Below are positions 1-28,311 of a DNA stretch of 32,000 nt, piece after piece. Every line of letters begins with the position of its first letter. Position 1 is the stretch's first letter. The position numbers and the translations under genes were made by a program. The notes beneath the pieces are model-generated. The model was given only the letters and a program-made list of their open reading frames with translations. It was not told the origin of the DNA and searched no databases. Source of the stretch: Opitutales bacterium (GTDB taxonomy: Bacteria > Verrucomicrobiota > Verrucomicrobiia > Opitutales > PNEW01); contig CBDCNV010000001.1 of assembly GCA_965219535.1 (NCBI GenBank), forward strand, positions 240,001 to 272,000. Reading direction: 5' to 3'.

Positions 1-657
1 CCTGCGTTGCTTTATTTTATACTGGGGAACTTCCAGTATCGGGTTTTCTCCCACATATTTTTTCGACACGCAGTATTTGAAGAAAGTGCTTAGGTATCCT
101 CGGCGGTTATTCCAGGTTTTAAGGGAGAGCACTTCTTTTGAGCGATGGTGTCGTGTATCGAGGTAAGTATTAAGCTCAGCAGGTTGAATTTCGTTAACGA
201 TCCGTCCCCAAAAAATACCCTTTAATTTTTTCATCTCACGAGTGATGCCCTGCTTCTGGCATAATGAGATGATCCCGCGCTCCATTTCCTTGGACTTATG
301 ATCACAATACTCTCGAACGGCCTCTTCGACGGTCATTGTCTCAGCAGCTTCTTTATAATGCCCTAAAAAATAATTAACAGCGAAAGTAAGAGATTTATTG
401 GACTTGGCTTGGTTAAGAAGATTAATAGCTGAAATGGACTCTTTATTCTGCCCGTGGGTCAGCGTTGTCCAAACCGTCTGCCCTTCGGATTGTTCGTTTA
501 AATAGCGGATCGATAACCGCTGACGCTCGGCGACGGCATCGTTGCGGGACTTGAAATTCTTGCGGATCTGCTTACCATTCAGGGTGCCGGACAAGCGCCA
601 GGCTTCTGACCCACTAGGGTTGATAAACCTAGTGATCTTAAATCTCTGTTTTGCCAT
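1..657 (-). CDS. Tyrosine recombinase (phage-type integrase), N-terminal 219 codons; gene continues past the left window edge
   Basis: Absent from the ORF track because it runs off the window. The reverse strand is open in one frame from ATG (complement of 655-657) to base 1; I checked all 219 in-frame triplets and found no TTA/CTA/TCA. Translation begins MAKQRFKITRFINPSGSEAWRLSGTLNGKQIRKNF. It contains LSLKTWNNRRGYLSTFFKYCVSKKYVGENP, typical of the arm-binding plus SAM-like core-binding N-terminus of tyrosine integrases. The catalytic domain would lie outside the window. The start codon is 57 nt from the 3' end of a tRNA gene. Confidence 0.55.
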   Translation of the reverse strand, partial: MAKQRFKITRFINPSGSEAWRLSGTLNGKQIRKNFKSRNDAVAERQRLSIRYLNEQSEGQTVWTTLTHGQNKESISAINLLNQAKSNKSLTFAVNYFLGHYKEAAETMTVEEAVREYCDHKSKEMERGIISLCQKQGITREMKKLKGIFWGRIVNEIQPAELNTYLDTRHHRSKEVLSLKTWNNRRGYLSTFFKYCVSKKYVGENPILEVPQYKIKQRR

Positions 658-7921: not shown

Positions 7922-7996
7922 TGGTTAGTCAGGGGTAATTTTTTTTAGAAACTTAGTCGAAAGTTACAACCTGCATCGTGCGATGAACGGTTGTTA

Positions 7997-8069
7997 GTCA
8001 AAAAGTCAAAAGGTCAAAAAGTCAAAATGGGGGAATGACGAGTGAACAGTGAACAGTGAATAGTGGATT
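7997..8069 (+). repeat. Modular word array: (GTCAAAAR)x4, GGGGG, spacer, (GTGAAYA)x3-4
   Basis: GTCAAAAA GTCAAAAG GTCAAAAA GTCAAAAT lies at 7997-8028 and GGGGG at 8029-8033. GTGAACA GTGAACA GTGAATA GTGGATT lies at 8042-8069. Confidence 0.85.
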
Positions 8070-8128
8070 TTCCGAGTGCATACATCTATTCAATATTTTG
8101 CAAAATACTGGACGATTAATTCATTCCT

Positions 8129-8197
8129 CCGCTTTCACGCATCTTCGCTTATTCGCATCTCCGCATTCACGCATCCTCGCATCTCCGCTTTCACGCG
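8129..8197 (+). repeat. TTCACGC/CGCATCTTCGC word array running into the stop codon of the aminotransferase gene
   Basis: The sequence is CCGCTTTCACGCATCTTCGCTTATTCGCATCTCCGCATTCACGCATCCTCGCATCTCCGCTTTCACGCG. The 19-mer CGCTTTCACGCATCTTCGC (8130-8148) is identical to 19271-19289. Confidence 0.85.
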
Positions 8198-9546
8198 TCA
8201 GTGTCACCTAAGCTGGGGCCGCCGCTGCGGTCGCCGACGTTAGCGAAGATTGATTTTAAAGCCGGGCCTTCCAATAATTCAACAACATTTCCATCCTCGA
8301 TCGCTTTATCAACCAATTGTAACACGCGTTCGTAAATAGGCATCGTGTCATCGATTATCTCCTGGGTGTGCGCCAAGTTCATAAAATGGTAACCAATGAA
8401 GAGCAGCCCGTGCCGGATACACTCCTGCTGAAAAAGACTTTTTATTTCACTGTAATCGTAGCCCCCCGCAGCTTTAAATGTGACTGTGGTTTTTGGCGGA
8501 TAACCTTCAAGGGAAATATAGGAAATACCCAATTTCTCGGTTAGTGCTTTGAAACGCTCTTGTAAATGTTTACCGCTTTCCCAGATTTTTCCGATCACAT
8601 CGTTGTCGCGCATATAATTGATACACGCTATGGATGCGGCCATCCCGGTCGTCTCACCGCTGAAGGTACAGGAATAAAAAACATTCTTATCATCAAAATC
8701 TTTCATCACCTCACGTTTTCCGACGAGTGCTGAGATCGGACTGCCATTTGCCATCGCCTTACCAAAGCAAGCGAGATCAGGTGTTACCCCGAAGTATTCC
8801 TGCGCGCCACCCATTGACCACCGAAATCCAGTAATAATTTCATCGAAGACAAGGACGGCGCCCGCTTTGTGGACCAACTCCTTTACTGTTTCCAAATAAC
8901 CCGGGTGAGGTTCTTCAACATAGACGGGCTCCATAATCACGCAGGCGACATTACCTTCATTTTCAGCGAGGAGCGTCCTCAGGCCATCGAGATCATTATA
9001 GGAAAAGGATTTGGTTAAATCGCGTACCGCCTGGGGTATCCCGGCATTGCGTTCGGTCGATCCAATGTACCAGTCCTGAAAGCCGTGATAGCCACCGCAG
9101 AGTACGACATCACGTCCGGTATGGGCTCGCGATAAGCGTACCGCAATGCTCGTGACATCGCTTCCGTTGCGCCCCATTCTCACCATCTCGGCACAGGGTA
9201 TCAACTCGCAGAGCAATTCACTGAGCTCGACTTCAAGCGGATGACAGAGACCAAACACGTGGCCGTCTTCCAATTGCTTTTTGACCGCGTCGTTAACCGC
9301 GGGATGACCGTATCCTAAGATATAAGGCCCCAGGCCTGAAGCGTAGTCAATATACCGGTTACCGTCGACATCGTAAACATAAGCACCTTCACCACGCTGA
9401 ATAAAGTTAGGGGTGACACCTTGAATCCAGTTTTGTGGTCCACGGCTCAGGGTATTGGTTGTTGACGGGACAACTTTTTTTGCCCTTTCAAAATATTGGC
9501 GCGAGCGTGTTAAAGTTCTCTCTTGTGAGGAAGTGCTAGTACTCAT
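8191..9546 (-). CDS. Class-III (PLP) aminotransferase, glutamate-1-semialdehyde aminomutase-like paralogue
   Basis: Contains GGYHGFQDWY, VLVFDEIITGFRWSMGGAQEYFGVTPDLACFGKAMANG (PLP lysine in FGK), and MEPV. Length is 451 aa. Confidence 0.8.
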   Translation of the reverse strand: MSTSTSSQERTLTRSRQYFERAKKVVPSTTNTLSRGPQNWIQGVTPNFIQRGEGAYVYDVDGNRYIDYASGLGPYILGYGHPAVNDAVKKQLEDGHVFGLCHPLEVELSELLCELIPCAEMVRMGRNGSDVTSIAVRLSRAHTGRDVVLCGGYHGFQDWYIGSTERNAGIPQAVRDLTKSFSYNDLDGLRTLLAENEGNVACVIMEPVYVEEPHPGYLETVKELVHKAGAVLVFDEIITGFRWSMGGAQEYFGVTPDLACFGKAMANGSPISALVGKREVMKDFDDKNVFYSCTFSGETTGMAASIACINYMRDNDVIGKIWESGKHLQERFKALTEKLGISYISLEGYPPKTTVTFKAAGGYDYSEIKSLFQQECIRHGLLFIGYHFMNLAHTQEIIDDTMPIYERVLQLVDKAIEDGNVVELLEGPALKSIFANVGDRSGGPSLGDTDA

Positions 9547-9625: not shown

Positions 9626-9883
9626 ATGAAACTTAATGTTAAAGCGTTTGGACTGGCCTCAGGTATTCTCTGGGGAGTAGGTGTGTTTTTACTGGCGTGG
9701 TGGCTGATCATCCTAGAAGGATCTTCTGGTGATCCCACTGCTCTCGGGCGTGTCTACAAGGGGTTTTCAATCAGCCCTCTCGGCAGCGTCATCGGTCTGG
9801 TCTGGGGATTTTTCGACGGGCTTATCGGCGGGCTCATATTCGCCTGGCTCTATAATAAGTTAGCGTCTGGATCTCAAGCGTGA
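9626..9883 (+). CDS. Small (85 aa) glycine-rich two-TM membrane protein, function unknown
   Basis: Has a strong SD (AAGGAGG, 6 nt before ATG). Two hydrophobic segments are visible: GLASGILWGVGVFLLAWWLIIL and GLVWGFFDGLIGGLIFAWLY. Confidence 0.55.
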   Translation: MKLNVKAFGLASGILWGVGVFLLAWWLIILEGSSGDPTALGRVYKGFSISPLGSVIGLVWGFFDGLIGGLIFAWLYNKLASGSQA

Positions 9884-9975
9884 ACGCGGGAAAGCGTGTA
9901 CGCGTAAATGCGGGAAAGAGTGAATGATATAACTGGAGGGACGCGCGAGAACGCGTGTAAGCGTTGATGCGGATA
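9878..9975 (+). repeat. GCGTGAA/GCGGGAAAG word array starting inside the last codons of the small ORF
   Basis: The sequence is GCGTGAACGCGGGAAAGCGTGTACGCGTAAATGCGGGAAAGAGTGAATG...TGGAGGGACGCGCGAGAACGCGTGTAAGCGTTGATGCGGATATG. It contains the 14-mer TGGAGGGACGCGCG (9934-9947), also found at 19208-19221. Confidence 0.8.
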
Positions 9976-9983
9976 TGATTGAA

Positions 9984-10048
9984 GTCAAAAGGTCAAAAGG
10001 TCAAAAAGGGGGGAGAGACCTGTTGTAGTGAACGGTGAACAGGGAAAA
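9984..10048 (+). repeat. Second copy of the modular array: (GTCAAAAG)x3, GGGGGG, spacer, (GTGAACR)x2 plus GGGAAAA
   Basis: GTCAAAAG lies at 9984-9991 and 9992-9999, GTCAAAAAG at 10000-10008, and a G-run at 10008-10013. GTGAACG GTGAACA GGGAAAA lies at 10028-10048. Confidence 0.85.
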
Positions 10049-10110
10049 TTCTCCGCTTTTCCTCTTACACGCTTCTACGCATAATCGCGGAAACGTGGTA
10101 ACGCGTTACC
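10049..10110 (+). repeat. Complementary-word array (CCGCTTTTCC, CTTACACGC, TTCTACGC) ending in a perfect 14-bp palindrome GGTAACGCGTTACC that overlaps the dapL stop codon
   Basis: CTTACACGC (10064-10072) is the reverse complement of GCGTGTAAG (9953-9961). The palindrome lies at 10097-10110, and the dapL stop is the complement of 10106-10108. Confidence 0.7.
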
Positions 10111-11341
10111 GCAGAACTTCGCTGATGCGTTCCATCGCGAGGGTCACGTTTTCGCGATTGTTAAAAGCGCTGAGGCGGATATGACCTTCTCCGCAGGATC
10201 CGAAGCCGGAGCCGGGAGTAGTGACGACACCCGCTTTTTCGAGGAGTAGATCGAATGATTCCCATGAATCTTTTCCGGTGTACATCCAGATATAGGGTGA
10301 GTTATCACCGCCGACACAGTCATAACCTAACTTGGTAATCGCCTCGCGAATAACACGGGCGTTTCCGAGGTAATAATCGGTGAGATCTCTTACTTGTTTT
10401 TGCCCCTCGGCAGTGTAAACTGAAGCCGCGGCTTGCTGCACGGGATAGGACACCCCGTTCATTTTTGTGCTTTGTCGGCGGTTCCACAAAGGGTGAATCA
10501 GCTGTTCTCCCCCTTGGCTGTCACTTGCTTTTAAATTTTCAGGGATGACCGTAAATGCACAACGAACGCCTGTGAAGCCCGCTGTTTTAGAAAAGCTCCT
10601 GAGTTCGATCGCTACATCTTTGGCGCCCTCGATTTCATAAATAGACTGCGGCAGTGCCTCATCGCGGACATAACTGACATAGGCGGCATCATAAAGGATG
10701 ATCGCTTTATTCTCCCTCGCGTAATCAACCCACTTTTTCAGCTGATCCTTTGTTACCATCGCCCCCGTAGGGTTATTGGGAAAACAGAGATAAATTAAAT
10801 CCATCGTCTCATTTGGAATCTCTGGAATATAATGATTTTGCGGAGTGGAATCGAGATAGACCACATTTTCAAAACGTCCATTGTGCTCAGTTCCGGTACG
10901 ACCTGCCATGACATTAGTATCGAGGTAAACCGGATAGACTGGATCGGTAATCGCAACTTTCGTATCGATGGCAAATATTTCCTGGATATTCGCGGAGTCA
11001 CACTTGGATCCGTCACTGACAAATATTTCATTCGCCGAGATGTCCGCACCGCGTGACTGAAATTCATTTTTCGCGATCGCCTCTCTTAAAAAATCGTAAC
11101 CCTGTTCGGGTCCATAACCACGAAAAGTATCCCGTTGCCCCATTTCATCGACGGCGGCATGAAAAGCATCGAGACAGGCTTGGGGCAGGGGCTCGGTGAC
11201 ATCGCCAATACCCAGTCTGATGATTTCCTGATCCGGATTATTTTTCTGATGAGCTGAAACGCGATTAGCAATTTCTAAAAAGAGATAAGACGCCTTCAGC
11301 TTGAGGTAGTGTTCATTGATGATAATCATAGTCGGTATCAA
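10106..11341 (-). CDS. dapL: LL-diaminopimelate aminotransferase
   Basis: The N-terminus [21 protein letters not shown] is the DapL hallmark NxNYLKLKAGYLFPEI. Also contains [17 protein letters not shown] (PLP Lys) and a class I/II aminotransferase fold. Length is 411 aa; the true start may be a few codons downstream. Confidence 0.8.
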
Positions 11342-12284: not shown

Positions 12285-13892
12285 ATGGAACATGATTACG
12301 ACGTCATTGTAGTAGGCAGTGGAATAGCCGGCCTCAGTTTTGCGCTCAGGGTAGCGGAAAAAGATTACACGGTTGCGATTATTACTAAAAAAACCCGGGC
12401 TGAATCCAATACCAATTACGCCCAGGGAGGTATTGCCTGTGTTACTTCAGAGGGAGATGATTTTGAATTTCATGTGCGCGATACACTTGAAGCGGGTGAC
12501 GGTCTTTGTGATGAGTCGGTGGTGCGCGAGATTGTCAATGACGGTCCGGCCCGCATCCAGGAATTAATTGATCTCGGGGTGCATTTTTCCCAACTCAATG
12601 ATGGGCGCCCCTCGCTGGGAAAAGAGGGGGGGCATTCTAAACGACGCATACTCCACGTCCAGGACATTACAGGCAAAGCAATCGAGTCAGCGTTACTGGG
12701 AGCGGTCGCGCGGATGAAAAACATTACGACGCTCGAGCATTTTTTTGCCATTGATTTGATAAAACGCAGCACTCTCGTCGAGGGTGTTGATTCTACTCCC
12801 GGTAGTGACGATAAAGCGGTCGGTCTCTATGCGCTCGATGTTCGTACAGGTGTGGTCGAATCGTTCCGATCGAGAGTGGTGTTAATGGCTACAGGTGGAG
12901 CGGGCCAAGCCTATCAATATACGACGAATCCCGATATCGCTACGGGTGATGGAATTGCAATGGCTTTTCGCGCGGGGGTTGAGATTGAGAACATGGAATT
13001 TATTCAGTTTCACCCGACGACGCTCTATACCAACTCCGATGAAAGGTTCCTCATCAGTGAGGCCGTTCGTGGAGAGGGGGCAATCTTACGCAATACAGAT
13101 GAGCGGGCGTTTATGAAAAATTTTCATCACCAAGCTGATCTCGCGCCACGCGACATCGTTGCGCGTGCGATCGATAGTGAAATGAAGCAATCGGGCGCCC
13201 ACCATCTCTGGTTGGATATTACCCATCATTCAGCTGAAGTTCTCGAAGACCGTTTTCCCACGATCTATAATACCTGTATCCAGCACGGGATCAATATGGC
13301 ACAAGATTTTATTCCCGTCGTGCCCGCGGCCCATTACCTGTGCGGTGGGATTAAGACAAATACGCACGCCGTAACCAGTTTAAACGGACTTTTTGCCTGT
13401 GGCGAAGTTGCCTGTACGGGGTTACACGGCGCCAATCGCCTTGCGAGTAATTCACTCTTAGAAGCGGTTGTTCTCGCTCACAATGGAGCTGAAAAAGTAT
13501 TGAATTATTTGGAGCGGAATAAGGAGGAGACTTTTGATCTACCCGACTGGATTGATGGTGATGTGCAAGACAGTGATGAACGCGTGATCCTTTCTCATAA
13601 TTCAGAGGAATTAAAACGAGCGATGTGGGACTATGTTGCTATAGTCCGCACGACTAAACGCCTGGAACGAGCGCAAACGCGTATTCAAAACCTCGCTAAA
13701 GAGATAGCTGATTACTATTGGAATTTTAAAGTGGAACCACGCCTCCTTGAACTACGCAATCTAATCCAGGTCGCTGAGCTTATTGTTAAATGCGCTCTTC
13801 AGCGAAAAGAGAGCCGGGGGCTCCACTATGTATTAGATCATCCCGAGAAAAACGCTGAACCGGAAAATACGTATATGCGGAAAAGCGATTGA
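12285..13892 (+). CDS. nadB: L-aspartate oxidase
   Basis: Contains the VIVVGSGIAGLS FAD dinucleotide motif, FIQFHPT, and ACTGLHGANRLASNSLLE. Length is 535 aa. The last codons (YMRKSD) overlap GCG-word sequence (GTATATGCGG). Confidence 0.9.
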   Translation: MEHDYDVIVVGSGIAGLSFALRVAEKDYTVAIITKKTRAESNTNYAQGGIACVTSEGDDFEFHVRDTLEAGDGLCDESVVREIVNDGPARIQELIDLGVHFSQLNDGRPSLGKEGGHSKRRILHVQDITGKAIESALLGAVARMKNITTLEHFFAIDLIKRSTLVEGVDSTPGSDDKAVGLYALDVRTGVVESFRSRVVLMATGGAGQAYQYTTNPDIATGDGIAMAFRAGVEIENMEFIQFHPTTLYTNSDERFLISEAVRGEGAILRNTDERAFMKNFHHQADLAPRDIVARAIDSEMKQSGAHHLWLDITHHSAEVLEDRFPTIYNTCIQHGINMAQDFIPVVPAAHYLCGGIKTNTHAVTSLNGLFACGEVACTGLHGANRLASNSLLEAVVLAHNGAEKVLNYLERNKEETFDLPDWIDGDVQDSDERVILSHNSEELKRAMWDYVAIVRTTKRLERAQTRIQNLAKEIADYYWNFKVEPRLLELRNLIQVAELIVKCALQRKESRGLHYVLDHPEKNAEPENTYMRKSD

Positions 13893-14000
13893 GGGATGCG
13901 TGGAATATTGGAAGAATGGATGTGTGGATGATTGGAAGCGGAGATGCGTGAATGTGGGGAAGCGTATAAGCGGATAAGCGGGGATGCGTGGAAGCGGGAT
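13893..14000 (+). repeat. GCGTGGAA/GGAAGCGG word array (left arm of a long imperfect inverted repeat)
   Basis: GGGATGCGTGGAA occurs at 13893-13905 and again at 13981-13993. Bases 13945-13973 are complementary to 14131-14159 at 25 of 29 positions. Confidence 0.8.
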
Positions 14001-14020
14001 ATCCGAATTTATTTTATATA

Positions 14021-14128
14021 AGGTGGAGCGGGCTGCCTGACCGCCATAGCTTCAAGCAACGGCTGGTTCTCAGCACGCTTCTTTAATTTCGACTTGATCT
14101 AACGCGCTAGGGACAGCGCGTTCCACCT
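14021..14128 (+). mobile_element. MITE-like / structured repeat element, copy 1 (108 bp, terminal inverted repeats AGGTGGAGCG...CGCGTTCCACCT)
   Basis: It shares AGGTGGAGCGGGCTGGTTCYCAGCACGCTTCTTTA and AACGCGSTAGGGACASCGCGTTCCACCT with the reverse complement of 16200-16278. It carries an extra 30 nt (14036-14065) bounded by a GGCTG direct repeat, and it is flanked by TA on both sides. Confidence 0.7.
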
Positions 14129-14130
14129 TA

Positions 14131-14159
14131 CCGCATATACGCTTCTCCGCATTCACGCG
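14131..14159 (+). repeat. Complementary-word arm CCGCATATACGCTTCTCCGCATTCACGCG overlapping the OsmC stop codon
   Basis: This is the right arm of the 25/29 inverted repeat with 13945-13973. CCGCATATACGC is the reverse complement of GCGTATATGCGG at 2893-2904. Confidence 0.8.
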
Positions 14160-14608
14160 ACCCGCGTATCCACCGTCACTTCGGTGGTTACGGAATTAGC
14201 GATAAAGCACTCGCGATGGGCTTTATCGTGCAGGGCATTCAGCTCCTCTTCCGAGGGTATTTTTTCTCCACTAAATTGGATGGTTGGCTTTAGCGTGACT
14301 TGAGTGACGGCCATTCTACCGGATTCATTTTTACCTAATATTCCGACAGCCTCGTCGACATAACTGTCGATCGTAAATCCCTGGTAGGAAGCTATGGCTA
14401 AAAATGTAAGCATATGACAGCTGGATAAGGAGGCTACATAGGCATCTTCGGGATTAACGCATTCGGCTTTACCTAAATAGCCAGGCGCGGCTGAGGCCTG
14501 AACTACGATTCCGTTTTCGAAATTCCAGGTGTGCTCCCGATTGTAATTTTTATATTGGAAGTCATCACTTTCGCGACTCCAGTTTACGCTTACTTTATGT
14601 TCGGACAT
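14153..14608 (-). CDS. OsmC/Ohr-family peroxiredoxin-like protein
   Basis: A 151-aa protein with two conserved-type cysteines (SLSSCHMLTFLAIA and AHRECFIANS), typical of the OsmC family. Confidence 0.75.
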   Translation of the reverse strand: MSEHKVSVNWSRESDDFQYKNYNREHTWNFENGIVVQASAAPGYLGKAECVNPEDAYVASLSSCHMLTFLAIASYQGFTIDSYVDEAVGILGKNESGRMAVTQVTLKPTIQFSGEKIPSEEELNALHDKAHRECFIANSVTTEVTVDTRVA

Positions 14609-14610
14609 GG

Positions 14611-16039
14611 TCAGCTAATTAATATGTTTTGTATATAATCATAAATACCACGGATGCCCCAAATAGTGAGAAATGACCCGCTGATCACATTGAGAATGAG
14701 CAATGTTTTTCCCATTTGCAGGGGTTTAGGCAAATATTTGCGATCGGTCCAGATCATCAGAAAACACCATAATCCGCAGGTTAAAACTCCACCGAAAATA
14801 GCCGCGGGGGTTACAATTTGAACAGGATTTCCACCCAGCCACATAATTGCCAATCCTCCCAGCCCACAATAGGCGACCACCCAAGGTCTGAGCTTAGCGA
14901 TTGGGACATTGCGTATGCGGGGGACGATCGGACGCAGGCATTCATAAGTTGTCCGAGTATAGAGTTCATAAGCGGCGAAGATGGTCCCAAAGAATGCCAT
15001 GAAGACACCAATTTGATAAAGATAGATTAATTTAGGATGAAGTAAGGTCAGGAACTCAGCCTGAACGGAGAGCAGTTGGAGGCCGTCAGGAACAATGTGT
15101 TGAGGGTGAAGGATGGCCGCCCCGAGGACCATAAAAGCAATCGTGAAGAGGACAACACAAGAAAAGGAAACGACGGCATCGGTGAGAGGCGCGATCAGCC
15201 ACCTTCGGCCCACTTTTACATTATCTTCATCGACGGCCAGACTCACCCCTTCAGGACCGACATCATTTTTGCGGTTAAGGAGTCCCCAGCCTTTTTCACG
15301 CAGCATTCCCAAGTAACCAAAGTAATCCTGCGTGCCGCCCCCTATCGCGCCTAAATAAGTGCCCAGTTCGATCCAGGCTGACCTTGAGCTGATCGCCGGA
15401 TAGGCTGGCGTGAACCCAGGCTTCGTAAGTCGGCTTGCTCGGAATTACCGCACCAAGAAACGCGGCCAGCCAGTCAGGTTTAATCGCAAAGACCGCAACT
15501 AAAATGCAGGCCAGTAGTATGGAGACGACAAATGTCTGTGTGATCTCCAGAGCTTTATAACTTTGAATAAAGGTCAACGTGACCGCGACAAAGACAATCA
15601 TGGTCCCCCACACCCTTGGATCTCCCCAAAGGGTACCACTATCCATATCGAATATCCATACCATCAGTGATCCGAGCATTTTAGGAAGTCCGGATAACCA
15701 AAGGGGGAAACAGAGAATGCTTATAATCGTCAGCGTCCAGACCGCCCACCCATGCGGCCCCGGTAAATACTTCCAGCGCTCAATGGGATGCTCACCGGTC
15801 AGGGTAATATAACGTGACGCGGTGTATACCTGGACAAATTTCATTAACCCGCCGCCAATAAAACACCATAGGAGAGTATAGCCAAAAAGAGCCCCGCCGC
15901 GCGAAGCAAATACAGTTTCACCACTACCAATAGTGACGGAGGCTATGATTGCACCCGGACCAAAAAATCGGAGCAAAGTGAGAAAGCTTAGTGATTTCAG
16001 TCCTTCAGTTAAAGGGGGGTAACGCAGAGGTTCATTCAT
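14611..16039 (-). pseudogene. Nramp-like (APC-fold) transporter interrupted by a frameshift (ORFs 15296-16039 and 14611-15312)
   Basis: The N-terminal ORF (FGPGAIIASVTIGSGETVFASRGGALFGY...) reads as a good membrane protein up to about PSKPTYEAWV. It then degrades into a basic, non-membrane tail (SLDRTGHLFRRDRGRHAGLLWLLGNAA). The other frame is open from 15444 and reads ...YPAISSRSAWIELGTYLGAIGGGTQDYFGYLGMLREKGWG, continuing into the C-terminal ORF, whose track start is only a TTG. The two frames differ by one base. Confidence 0.6.
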
Positions 16040-16199
16040 AGGTTATACAGGAGCTTGTGAGGATGATAAGAGGACAGCAAGGTTTAGGTCATGGGTATAA
16101 TCCTCGGTCGTCGATTGTCGATTGAATTTTATTTGCACCTGGTGTCGACTTGATCGACAAGGTCACTTGCTCTACCCTGTAACAATGAATAATGCAATA

Positions 16200-16278
16200 A
16201 GGTGGAACGCGGTGTCCCTACCGCGTTAATTGAAAGTAATTAATAAAGAAGCGTGCTGGGAACCAGCCCGCTCCACCT
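16200..16278 (-). mobile_element. MITE-like / structured repeat element, copy 2 (79 bp, inverted relative to copy 1)
   Basis: The reverse complement reads AGGTGGAGCGGGCTGGTTCCCAGCACGCTTCTTTATTAATTACTTTCAATTAACGCGGTAGGGACACCGCGTTCCACCT. It aligns with copy 1 over both ends, and the central roughly 16 nt is divergent. Confidence 0.7.
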
Positions 16279-16326
16279 AAATTATTAAAATTGATTTCTA
16301 AAGACTAATCAGTAATCTTAGCCCTA

Positions 16327-16815
16327 ATGCAGGCTTGGATTGAAACAGTGTTGGTTAACTTGGGTTATATATTAATGATCGAGCCAACGGGCGTCCATTT
16401 TTATATACTCTCCGGAGTCGCAACAGGCAGTTTTCTCATATTTGGAAAACTGATTGCTGCTTATCTGGTTGGCAGCGAAAAAGGATTTTTACTGGTTTTT
16501 CTCGGTATGTTGATCCCCCTGATCTTGATCGTGGCGGGATTAACTTTGGCTGACCTTTATCTTGTTCATCATATTAAAAGTGAAACTTGGCAACTAGTGG
16601 TAAAAATCAGCACCGGCACAACTCTTTTTTTGTTCATTGGTGTTTATCTAGCTAAGCTTTTATTCTCTATTGAGTGGGGCAAGAGCCTGGCGGCAATCAT
16701 CCTGACTTATGGGATTACCTTTGCCGGATTGTTTTTAACGAAGTCGGGAATAGAGGCATTTTCATCCGGGGCTTCGGTCGTCGATAAATATCAGGAAAAT
16801 CGCGCCGAGGAGTAG
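16327..16815 (+). CDS. Hypothetical polytopic membrane protein (162 aa)
   Basis: Has four to five hydrophobic helices and no motif I recognise. Confidence 0.4.
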   Translation: MQAWIETVLVNLGYILMIEPTGVHFYILSGVATGSFLIFGKLIAAYLVGSEKGFLLVFLGMLIPLILIVAGLTLADLYLVHHIKSETWQLVVKISTGTTLFLFIGVYLAKLLFSIEWGKSLAAIILTYGITFAGLFLTKSGIEAFSSGASVVDKYQENRAEE

Positions 16816-16850
16816 GCCGCCTCATAAAGACCACAACGTGTAATTTCTGG

Positions 16851-16867
16851 TAGGAATTATATTCCTA
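16851..16867. promoter_or_regulatory. Dyad site 1: TAGGAA-TTATA-TTCCTA
   Basis: A 17-bp dyad with perfect 6-bp arms and a 5-nt spacer, read directly. Confidence 0.4.
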
Positions 16868-16888
16868 TCTTGTGGGATCCGAATCAGA

Positions 16889-16905
16889 TAGGAATATATT
16901 TCCTA
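16889..16905. promoter_or_regulatory. Dyad site 2: TAGGAA-TATAT-TTCCTA (19-bp dyad with flanking A/T)
   Basis: Same half-sites and spacing as site 1, with centres 38 bp apart. Confidence 0.4.
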
Positions 16906-16958
16906 TTAAGATTTCGCTTCTCTTTCGGTCGTTCCCGAGGATCTGAGGTTATTCAGTT

Positions 16959-16989
16959 AATTAAGTAATTGGTAACTAATTACTTAATT
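16959..16989. promoter_or_regulatory. Dyad site 3: AATTAAGTAATT-GGTAACT-AATTACTTAATT
   Basis: Perfect 12-bp arms separated by a 7-nt spacer. Confidence 0.35.
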
Positions 16990-16992
16990 CTC

Positions 16993-17015
16993 TACTAGGA
17001 AGTAATTACCTAGTA
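16993..17015. promoter_or_regulatory. Dyad site 4: TACTAGG-AAGTAATTA-CCTAGTA
   Basis: Perfect 7-bp arms. The spacer reuses the AAGTAATT word of site 3. Confidence 0.3.
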
Positions 17016-17096
17016 AGTGTGTAATCCTATCAATAATTCGTTCCCGTAATCTCATATATTATTGGATGTCAATATCATGCCAAACTAAGTGAAAGC

Positions 17097-17112
17097 TGGC
17101 ACAGGGTCTGCT
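17097..17112 (+). promoter_or_regulatory. Sigma-54 (RpoN) type -24/-12 promoter upstream of fliA: TGGCACAGGGTCTGCT
   Basis: Matches the consensus TGGCAC-N5-TTGC at every position except the first T of TTGC. GG lies at 17098-17099 and GC at 17110-17111, which is the correct spacing. It sits 84-99 nt upstream of the fliA ATG. Confidence 0.5.
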
Positions 17113-17195
17113 TAAAGAACGACACGTCAATATAAAATTCAGCAGGAGAAACTACACCTGTAACCGAACAACACAGAGAAAGAACAGAATCTATC

Positions 17196-17978
17196 ATGAA
17201 AACAGTGATCATAAAATTTAATGGCCAACCCCAGGCGCAAAACGAGATGACCGCGAAGAGGGAGGAAGAGACAAAAAATATGGATATAGTTGAAAGCTAT
17301 CTCCCTTTAGTAAAGCGCGTGGTAAAGAAGATTATGAAAAATCTACCTTCTCATATTGATTCCGACGATCTGCACAGTGTGGGTGTATTAGGTTTAATAG
17401 CAGCAACGCAAAAATATGACCCGCTTCAGGGACATACTTTTGAAGCTTACGCAGCGATGCGCGTGCGCGGCGCTATTCTCGATGAGTTGAGGCGTCTTGA
17501 CAATATGCCAAGAACGGCACGCGCCAAATACCGTCAGCTACAAAAAACGGTAGAGATTTTAGAACAGCGGTTCGGCCGAACACCAGAAGATGAAGAGATA
17601 CGGGAGGAAATGGGTCAGAGCACGAAAGAATTCAAACGGATGATGAAGCAAGTCATACCGGTAAACTTTGTATCCCTCGATCGTTCGTATCATGTAAGTG
17701 AATTCAAGGAGCCAGACTTACACGAGGCACTCGCAGACAATCAGCAAATACCCAGTTGGGAAATGATGCAAAGGGATGAAATGCGAGAGCTCATGACTGA
17801 ATGTTTAAAACAACTCCCCGACCGCCAGAAAAAAATATTGTCGATGTATTATTTTGAGGACATGCGATTAGGTGAGATCGCCGAGGTATTCAGTGTGACT
17901 GAAGCGCGCGTTTGCCAGATTCACGCCAAGGCTGTAGCTGCACTGCGAAATTCGGTATACAGTGCGATGAATCGCTAA
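17196..17978 (+). CDS. fliA: RNA polymerase sigma factor FliA/WhiG (sigma-28)
   Basis: Contains YLPLVKRVV, DDLHSVGVLGLIAATQKYDP, FEAYAAMRVRGAILDELRRLDNMPR (region 2), and LGEIAEVFSVTEARVCQIHAKAV (region 4.2 HTH). The true start could be an internal Met (MTAKREE or MDIVESY). No other flagellar genes are in the window. Confidence 0.85.
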   Translation: MKTVIIKFNGQPQAQNEMTAKREEETKNMDIVESYLPLVKRVVKKIMKNLPSHIDSDDLHSVGVLGLIAATQKYDPLQGHTFEAYAAMRVRGAILDELRRLDNMPRTARAKYRQLQKTVEILEQRFGRTPEDEEIREEMGQSTKEFKRMMKQVIPVNFVSLDRSYHVSEFKEPDLHEALADNQQIPSWEMMQRDEMRELMTECLKQLPDRQKKILSMYYFEDMRLGEIAEVFSVTEARVCQIHAKAVAALRNSVYSAMNR

Positions 17979-18188
17979 GATGATCTAAAGGATAGATTGC
18001 TCCCGGTTGAGTTCATCTCTCATTGCCATTTAATAAGGGTGTCGTGAATCTTACAACCCAAGGTAGATTGGGTTCCACCCTGATATTGCAGCTCATATAA
18101 TGTGAAAAGCTGGCTGAGAATGGCCCGCATTCGAAGAAATTAATAAATTATTTGCGTTAGATTGAGCACCGGTTATTTTAAGGGTGAG

Positions 18189-19087: not shown

Positions 19088-19096
19088 TGAAGTTAT

Positions 19097-19205
19097 GTGT
19101 ATAAGCGTTGATGCGAAGATGCGTGAAAGCGGGTATGGGTGGATGCGTTGATGCGAAAATGCGTATAAGCGGTTATGCGAAGAGGCGGATATGAGTGAAT
19201 GAGAA
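19097..19205 (+). repeat. GCG-word array (GATGCG, GCGAAGATGCGTGAAAGCG) with an internal imperfect 40-bp tandem duplication
   Basis: The units start at 19105 and 19145 and share 29 of 33 aligned bases. ATGCGAAGATGCGTGAAAGCG (19111-19131) has an exact reverse complement at 19271-19291. Confidence 0.85.
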
Positions 19206-19261
19206 TTTGGAGGGACGCGCGTGGCCCTACAGGTATACATTTGAAAAGCCTTCCCGCATTG

Positions 19262-19306
19262 TCTCATTCACGCTTTCACGCATCTTCGCATTCTCGCTTA
19301 TACGCA
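19262..19306 (+). repeat. Complementary-word array (TTCACGC, CGCATCTTCGC), the right arm of the inverted repeat
   Basis: The sequence is TCTCATTCACGCTTTCACGCATCTTCGCATTCTCGCTTATACGC. It ends 10 nt before the DeoR stop codon. Confidence 0.85.
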
Positions 19307-19315
19307 AAAACATTA

Positions 19316-28262: not shown

Positions 28263-28311
28263 TAGGAATTAGGAATTAGGAATTATAAATTAGGAATTGG
28301 GAATTAAAATT
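28263..28311. repeat. 7-bp tandem array TAGGAAT x3, TATAAAT, TAGGAAT, TGGGAAT, TAAAAT in the 71-bp gap between aroB and the hypothetical gene
   Basis: Read directly. The period is exactly 7 over about 49 bp. The same TAGGAA word forms the dyads at 16851 and 16889. Confidence 0.85.

Follow-up and report, generated by a model that had tools for sequence, protein, structure and literature searches.

What are the two short, related sequences that stand on either side of osmC and an Nramp-family transporter gene in Opitutales DNA, and do they act together? They were found in the 32,000-nucleotide stretch analysed here (contig CBDCNV010000001.1, positions 240,001 to 272,000; hereafter the window, with a G+C content of 46% and 99.995% identity to a 300-kb contig from an ENA metagenome assembly), where the first (copy 1) occupies positions 14021-14128 on the plus strand and the second (copy 2) positions 16200-16278 on the minus strand. 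Both elements are, with high likelihood, REPINs, that is, doublets of repetitive extragenic palindromes (REPs), and belong to a REP family that is associated with a REP-associated tyrosine transposase (RAYT) and spread across Verrucomicrobiota. This assignment is based on the doublet anatomy of the elements and on the RAYT genes located between inverted arms.

The two copies could be aligned from end to end, with the sole exception of a block of 30-32 nt in copy 1 (14036-14065/67). A 19-nt 5' part and a 28-nt 3' part each occurred exactly twice in the window, versus 0.00-0.01 occurrences expected from shuffled sequences; the resemblance is far beyond chance. Copy 1 (108 nt) comprises a G-type arm with a nested module (14021-14079, plus strand), a spacer (14080-14100), whose sequence and length vary across the family, and an inverted A-type arm (14101-14128, minus strand). 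The G-type arm carries the tag AGGTGGA and the hairpin AGCGGGCTG / TCAGCACGCT, the loop of which is expanded by the module (14036-14067, plus strand; 30-32 nt, CCTGACCGCCATAGCTTCAAGCAACGGCTG(GT)). On the minus strand the A-type arm reads AGGTGGA-ACGCGCTG-TCCC-TAGCGCGTT; it scored 27.9 bits (E 9e-8) with the arm profile and folds as single-stranded DNA (ssDNA) into a hairpin with the tag unpaired (z -3.9). Copy 2, which at 79 nt falls into the canonical length class, comprises an A-type arm on the plus strand (16200-16227; AGGTGGA-ACGCGGTG-TCCC-TACCGCGTT, 24.5 bits) and a G-type arm on the minus strand (16250-16278; AGGTGGA-GCGGGCTGG-TTC-CCAGCACGCT). Across the 32-kb window the profile recovered the four arms of copies 1 and 2 and no others.

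A sequence-only reading of this DNA, made without database searches, had described two copies at these positions, inverted-repeat termini, a GGCTG direct repeat flanking a 30-nt extra segment of copy 1 and one compensatory change in the 3' hairpin. The pair of copies was borne out by the sequence and by the shuffle counts, and the GGCTG repeat is present. The 3' hairpin reads AACGCGCT/AGCGCGTT in copy 1 and AACGCGGT/ACCGCGTT in copy 2, which corresponds to a single C-G to G-C swap. The terminal inverted repeat proved to be longer than first stated: it is the whole ~28-nt arm, AGGTGGA[G/A]CG...CG[C/T]T, and includes the loop, which is TCCC or GGGA depending on the arm.

The distribution of the element was analysed by scanning one genome per species with the pattern AGGTGGAGCG-N45-75-CGCGTTCCACCT, in which the termini served as the only anchors and for which about 2 chance matches are expected. 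At least 118 loci were obtained, nearly all of them from metagenome-assembled genomes (MAGs) of Verrucomicrobiota and Kiritimatiellales and often several per genome, so the element is not limited to the two copies from which it was first described. Opitutales, Opitutaceae, Lacunisphaera, Chthoniobacterales, Akkermansia-labelled MAGs and Kiritimatiellales are represented among the matches listed. One Lacunisphaera MAG contained at least 9 copies with exact anchors, and 78 additional occurrences of the tag were found inside the retrieved loci; in the source genome, of which 32 kb were covered, there are two copies and one probable relic. The 122 listed matches are 67-96 nt long (mode 77), and about 115 of them share the anatomy AGGTGGA-GCGCGTTG-TCCC(C)-CAACGCGC-T, spacer, A-ACGCGTTG-GGGA-CAACGCGT-T-CCACCT, the spacer being variable (about 15-45 nt). 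The earlier view is supported in so far as the element is small, does not code for protein, has inverted ends and exists in many copies; it is very probably non-autonomous mobile DNA.

Each arm is formed by a single-stranded tag, AGGTGGA (6-7 nt; (A)GGTGGA is invariant), and an imperfect hairpin of ~9 bp with a loop of 3-5 nt, and the two arms of an element are inverted copies of one another, asymmetric loop included. Arm length was 27-29 nt in 250 of 278 arms. There are two flavours, "G" (AGCG...CGCT) and "A" (AACG...CGTT), and accordingly the pair 8-27 within the arm was G-C in 136 of these 278 arms, A-T in 127 and something else in 15; pairs 12-15 showed C-G, G-C and A-T alternatives. Pairing between the arms would place G opposite T and C opposite A at positions 8/27; hence, the conserved unit is the hairpin within each arm. 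A covariation count showed that the hairpin is kept by compensatory changes across the family. Among 92 distinct 28-nt arms, 95.9% of the cells were paired, a percentage that is inflated because only arms with at least 8 of 9 pairs had been admitted and because bases 8-12 of the A-type arm are fixed by the scan pattern. Six of the nine pairs showed double changes, mostly outside the bases fixed by the search pattern, with 98 compensatory cells in total; none of 500 shuffles reached as high a value, and slid controls gave 25-52% paired. Each of the two alleles of the swap seen in the window (GCT/AGC and GGT/ACC) is found again in further copies of the low-GC subfamily, one of them in L005, L014, L027 and L076 and the other in L039, L097, L120 and L172. 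As ssDNA, the arms fold into hairpins with the tag unpaired (z -3.8 to -4.6).

The retrieved loci of the family were screened for open reading frames (ORFs) with HUH and Y-x3-NP motifs. Three small ORFs (148-182 aa) were located directly between or beside inverted arms: in L062 an arm (1651-1678) is followed by the gene (1712-2158) and an inverted arm (2166-2193), in L085 an arm is followed by the gene and a full doublet, and in L015 the gene is flanked by two full doublets. Their products matched the whole NCBIfam profile NF047646 (REP-associated tyrosine transposase) with E values of 3e-18 to 6e-19. The best match in PDB was 4er8, the E. coli TnpA-REP, at an E value of 3.9e-7 and in an alignment that takes in the HUH and catalytic-tyrosine regions, versus E values of 0.4-0.7 for IS200/IS608 transposases. 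At E values up to 1e-5 there were 349 relatives, many of them named "REP element-mobilizing transposase RayT" by JGI; many sit on contigs of ~1 kb, as expected for genes flanked by repeats. Four relatives were reached from the protein side, and all four had inverted arms within about 10-60 nt. In all, seven independent loci carry a ~150-aa HUH/Y1 gene flanked by inverted arms (L062, L085, L015, L135-137, L138-140, L141 and L262/263). From these sequences the partner enzyme of the doublets is predicted to be a RAYT of ~150 aa, an HUH/Y1 tyrosine transposase related to the TnpA of IS200/IS605.

The gene for the protein P0221 (L135-L137) was present on 19 contigs, and in each of the six places shown it lies between an aldehyde dehydrogenase gene and thrS; P0226 and P0165 (L141 and L262/L263) both lie between gatB and aspS, in two divergent genomes. 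In this small sample, the shared neighbours and the shared gatB-aspS locus suggest that the RAYT is a single-copy gene, vertically inherited over the long term. RAYTs have been described in these same terms (PMC5581495). In several of the RAYT genes (L135-L141) the codons for a C-terminal W-W-(S/T) read GGTGGAGCG or GGTGGA and thereby match the tag of the REPs, which may be a coincidence.

Among the other explanations, the one that survives best takes RNA as the primary unit, either a structured non-coding RNA or a cis-acting hairpin (terminator, stabiliser of mRNA 3' ends or attenuator), and attributes the covariation to RNA folding. The RNA fold is indeed strong (z -3.9 to -5.5), and in the subfamily of the window the G-type hairpin followed by ACGCTTCTTT gives a terminator-like score. 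The location of the copies is also compatible with it. According to a crude ORF caller, they are mostly intergenic and lie mainly at gene 3' ends (31 listed copies between convergent, 38 between tandem and 8 between divergent genes); the 27 copies called "inside ORF" include four chance matches from outside the family and probably spurious ORFs of high-GC DNA. Classical REPs, moreover, are known to affect mRNA stability and termination (reviewed in PMC3733652). Against this, the orientation of the copies relative to tandem genes shows no preference (17 in the same versus 21 in the opposite orientation), and the arms are inverted with their loops, a symmetry that a two-hairpin RNA would have no reason to keep. 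Together, the inverted arms and the absence of an orientation bias fit a DNA hairpin that is read by a protein on either strand. Copy 1 lies between convergent genes (the nadB-osmC spacer), but copy 2 lies between divergent gene starts (Nramp and a gene for a 162-aa protein), where its terminator-like side has no gene upstream of it. No relevant family was detected in an Rfam 15 scan of positions 13000-17500 with E values up to 1, the lone match being a chance-level one to the L20 leader (21 bits versus a gathering threshold of 58.7). Furthermore, the spread of the elements is explained by their association with a transposase gene. We therefore regard RNA as an improbable primary unit, and reading the covariation as a sign of a discrete RNA is not supported. 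Effects on the host at the RNA level may be a by-product of REPINs.

One important question is whether the two inverted copies act jointly, delimiting either a segment that can invert or a composite element by which osmC and the Nramp gene were moved together. The 2.07-kb segment between them is bracketed in inverted orientation, and an invertible or jointly mobilised unit had been suggested on that ground. The locus was compared with contigs encoding NadB proteins of 92% (L126), 90% (L129), 87% (L130) and 80% (L134) identity. All of them carry nadB, followed on the opposite strand by osmC and Nramp, and then the gene for the 162-aa protein, in the order and orientation of the window, with the exceptions that L130 lacks osmC and that L134 has an insertion sequence (IS) between nadB and osmC. 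At the first site, the nadB-osmC spacer, the window shares an orthologous REPIN with identical flanks with L126 and L129, whereas L130 and L134 have no REPIN there. At the second site, between Nramp and the 162-aa gene, copy 2 is intact in the window and its L129 ortholog is degenerate and decorated; in L126 a 15-nt terminal remnant, CAGCCCGCTGCACCA, was left after a deletion of ~160 nt, and L130 shows the same gap, in which a possible remnant is too diverged for recognition. A third site lies 3' of a sigma-factor gene. There, positions 18040-18079 of the window contain a probable decayed REPIN in which only ...GGGTTCCACC (18070-18079) is recognisable; the arm profile did not detect this relic, which was aligned with a degenerate REPIN of L126 (12488-12610) located 3' of the orthologous gene, in which the loop of an arm contains the module. 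The elements are thus variously present, missing or decayed at three orthologous sites, which is indirect evidence of mobility.

The shared gene order and the orthologous copies point to the osmC-Nramp segment as ancestral and not inverted, and to the two copies as old, independent, vertically inherited residents of adjacent spacers that are in part decaying in sister lineages. In each of the three lineages with copy 1, its inner A-type arm has retained its own allele, so no arm swapping has taken place. The G-type arm of copy 1 is closer to that of copy 2 and to that of the second site of L129 than to its own orthologs, which suggests gene conversion between copies. The longest exact stretches common to both copies are ~12-15 nt, which is short for homologous recombination, and L130 lacks osmC alone and has no REPINs. 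The one further observation in favour of joint action came from short reads, the contigs of which break at or inside both elements. In the Logan assembly of ERR13605531 (another sample of the same strain; L003, L123 and L125), contigs end at window positions 14046, 14213 and 16201/16203; some stop within copy 1 and others precisely at the outer end of copy 2, two of which overlap by only 3 nt. Assemblies are expected to break at hairpin repeats. Heterogeneity of the population was considered for the contig end at the terminus of copy 2 and judged the less likely reading, as the neighbouring contigs are collinear with the window and break at the hairpins; the breaks are probably an effect of the hairpins on assembly or coverage. 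Thus, with copy 1 at the same site in three lineages and the gene order unchanged in relatives down to 80% NadB identity, a joint unit is hardly credible, and the suggestion is withdrawn.

The flanks of the elements bear on the remaining alternative. In element orientation they are TA/TA for copy 1 and TT/TA for copy 2. Among the 122 listed copies, equal dinucleotide flanks were counted in 8, versus 7.6 expected, and equal flanks of 3-8 bases in 0-1; TA/TA flanks were not enriched, and no target-site duplication was found at offsets of 0-7 and lengths of 2-5. The base next to the element is a purine in 78% of cases on the 5' side and a pyrimidine in 80% on the 3' side, the two not being mutually complementary; beyond the tag the flanks showed no complementarity, with 27-43 complementary cases among 122 at each flank position (35% at the first and 22-30% at the others, versus ~25% expected). 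A classical miniature inverted-repeat transposable element (MITE) derived from an IS630/Tc1-mariner-type DDE transposon, with insertion into and duplication of TA, which the inverted ends and the TA on both sides of copy 1 had brought to mind, can therefore be practically dismissed, given the lack of any 2-8-nt duplication at any offset, flanking bases that are a purine and a pyrimidine in place of TA, the HUH/Y1 nature of the sole transposase found between matching ends (at seven loci) and the absence of a DDE gene with these ends from ~0.9 Mb of family loci, in which all arm-bounded genes are Y1/HUH. The elements resemble MITEs partnered by DDE enzymes (Correia/NEMIS, RUP and IS630-derived ones) in being small, intergenic and foldable into a long hairpin, with inverted ends, but those duplicate their target (TA in the case of the Correia and IS630 types) and share their ends with a DDE IS, neither of which is the case here.

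The REPIN-RAYT systems, for which the GI-GIII REPINs of Pseudomonas fluorescens (Bertels & Rainey 2011, PMC3116915) and the REP/BIME elements of E. coli with TnpA-REP (Messing et al. 2012, PMC3479197) serve as references, provide the closest comparison. As in these systems, an imperfect palindrome of ~20-40 nt is present as an inverted pair around a short spacer, with a total length of ~70-110 nt. In relatives the copies are many, dispersed and mostly extragenic; they are non-coding, and no target duplication is seen. In other genomes, a small and apparently single-copy HUH/Y1 gene is flanked by the same palindromes at what seems to be a conserved locus, and there is long vertical persistence at orthologous sites. 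The present family differs from the classical systems in its hosts (Verrucomicrobiota/Kiritimatiellota in place of Gammaproteobacteria), in the conservation of the tag and the base of the stem over several orders, whereas classical REPs differ between species, and in its divergent RAYT. A full-text literature search found no description of the arm sequence family.

By analogy with the biochemistry of IS608 and of the E. coli TnpA-REP, we infer that single-stranded hairpins allow the RAYT to mobilise the doublets. On ssDNA, each arm would fold into its own hairpin; the RAYT would recognise this hairpin and the adjacent tag and would cut and rejoin there, and the doublet would be moved or copied without duplication of the target. 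The requirement for a foldable hairpin would give rise to the compensatory changes.

Several points weigh against the assignment to REPINs, in addition to the selection of arms in the covariation count mentioned above. The classical GTAG at the foot of the hairpin is replaced by AGGTGGA; the GTAG found in the A-type loop of the window elements is specific to their subfamily. The RAYT-like proteins score 66-69 bits, under the 80-bit cut-off of NCBIfam, and their match to Pfam Y1_Tnp is weak. No RAYT gene is present in the 32-kb window, and because of this the partner enzyme in the source organism itself is unproven. The local copies look old and decaying, so that the REPIN system could be extinct in the source lineage, and no direct sign of recent transposition was seen, be it a clean empty site between very close strains or a read that records an excision.

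Two other groups of elements were compared with this REP family. In Di Nocera et al. (2013, PMC3733652), Opitutus terrae, another member of the Verrucomicrobia, is described as rich in REPs (families GTAG-17 and GTAG-19), and TIRtrons/TIRYTs are described as RAYT-like genes with non-GTAG inverted repeats, some of which are self-complementary and form families of dimer repeats. The present family resembles the latter in having a RAYT-like gene between non-GTAG inverted repeats, and copy 1, like REP dimers reported in the same text, lies inside a longer palindrome. To judge by the descriptions in that text, it is probably distinct from the families listed there: the O. terrae dimers have spacers of 1-2 bp and GTAG, as against ~15-45 nt and GGTGG here, and the arms lack the GGGGWSAS motif that many TIRYT ends share. 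With IS200/IS605 elements (IS608, ISDra2), whose subterminal hairpins are read as ssDNA by a Y1 HUH transposase and which lack terminal duplications, the similarity is closest at the RAYT loci, where arm, gene and inverted arm resemble a minimal element of that kind. By contrast, the window copies contain no gene, their ends are near-identical inverted copies and not distinct left and right ends, and the enzyme groups with TnpA-REP and not with the TnpA of IS200/IS608.

The extra segment of copy 1, placed inside the loop of its G-type arm, is a diverged copy of a widespread module with the consensus CYTG-YCCGCC-ATAGCCTTGGCGAC-GGCGGR, which can also be written CYTG-YCCGCC-ATA-GC-CTTG-GC-GAC-GGCGGR. 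It is absent from the orthologous REPINs of both L126 and L129, which indicates that it was gained, or acquired by conversion, in this lineage alone. Other REP arms carry the module at the same point: L014 (6801-6910), the third-site REPIN of L126 (12488-12530), L172 and both arms of the second site of L129 (10930-11070). A scan of metagenomes with 19 nt of the module as query returned at least 120 loci (L142-L261). At least 117 module copies had unique flanks and sharp boundaries, on AT-rich and GC-rich contigs alike, and among the matches listed the module occurs across many bacterial lineages and its sixth stem pair covaries (C-G 40, T-A 37, T-G 18). A GGTGG-type tag was found within 45 nt of 12 of the 125 listed module matches; at least 5 of these are clear REP arms (L152, L159, L172, L221 and L247), and some of the others look incidental. 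In L176, L178 and L250 the module is nested inside another copy of itself, at (A/G)T^AGC. Rfam searches of 20 module-bearing loci gave no family for the module, the only match being a class A RNase P RNA (L209, positions 1-351, minus strand; 274 bits), in which the P12 apex, CCCGCC-AUAGCCUUGGCGAC-GGCGGG, is identical to the module. Nothing relevant was obtained from a full-text literature search with the module sequence.

Three accounts of the module were considered and rejected. A second REP family with a RAYT of its own is contradicted by the absence of any Y1-like ORF in the 0.69 Mb around the 125 listed copies. An invariable position at the apex of a host hairpin reduces to a weak enrichment, with flanking stems of at least 7 bp in 12 listed copies versus 5.8 expected. 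A strand-specific RNA element is at odds with the lack of an orientation bias (17 in the same versus 12 in the opposite orientation among listed copies). It is conceivable, though doubtful, that the module is an independent and very small (~30 nt) mobile hairpin, which also enters the loops of other palindromes and possibly P12 of RNase P.

The surroundings of the elements contain further repeats. Arrays with a period of 8 nt (~nnGCGnnn, e.g. GGATGCGT GGAAGCGG) were observed at 13901-14006 together with 14129-14160, at 8125-8200, at 9883-10130 and at 19093-19309. They are arranged as long, imperfect inverted pairs and are found mostly where the ends of two genes converge, with similar arrays in L126 and L134, and copy 1 lies at the centre of one such pair. 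In L133/L134 (8890-9960) an IS with helix-turn-helix and rve integrase-type ORFs is located in the nadB-osmC spacer, within the octamer repeats, at the place occupied by the REPIN in other lineages. Other intergenic tandem repeats with units of 7-8 nt (AGTCAAAA, TTTCGAC, TAACACT, AGTGAAC and TAGGAAT) are found at 880-1060, 2792-2822, 7996-8065, 9984-10006 and 28263-28311. These are reminiscent of short tandem repeats known from cyanobacteria, although the host is a verrucomicrobium; a cyanobacterial origin was considered and rejected, with HIP1 present once in the window and protein relatives from Opitutales/Verrucomicrobiota. The Nramp-family transporter gene (14611-16039, minus strand) is split into ORFs of 247 aa and 231/233 aa that overlap at 15296-15312, whereas the relatives have a single intact gene of 475 aa. 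This frameshift is not a long-read error, since it is identical in the independent short-read assembly (L123, 100% identity).

Naming the two elements as REPINs averts their annotation as a MITE or as a small RNA, and removes the suggestion that osmC and Nramp form a mobile or invertible cassette. The elements break short-read assemblies, and they are usable as lineage markers. The one part that known systems do not explain is the nested module; if it is a mobile hairpin, the REPIN would here be host to a second, smaller parasite. Work on REPIN-RAYT systems has so far centred on Gammaproteobacteria, and the present case offers a large family in another phylum with a tag other than GTAG. The conservation of the tag and of the base of the stem across orders, with an upper stem that covaries, is useful for establishing what the transposase reads, and the orthologous copies, which can be traced as intact, decorated, decayed or deleted, are useful for studying how such elements persist.

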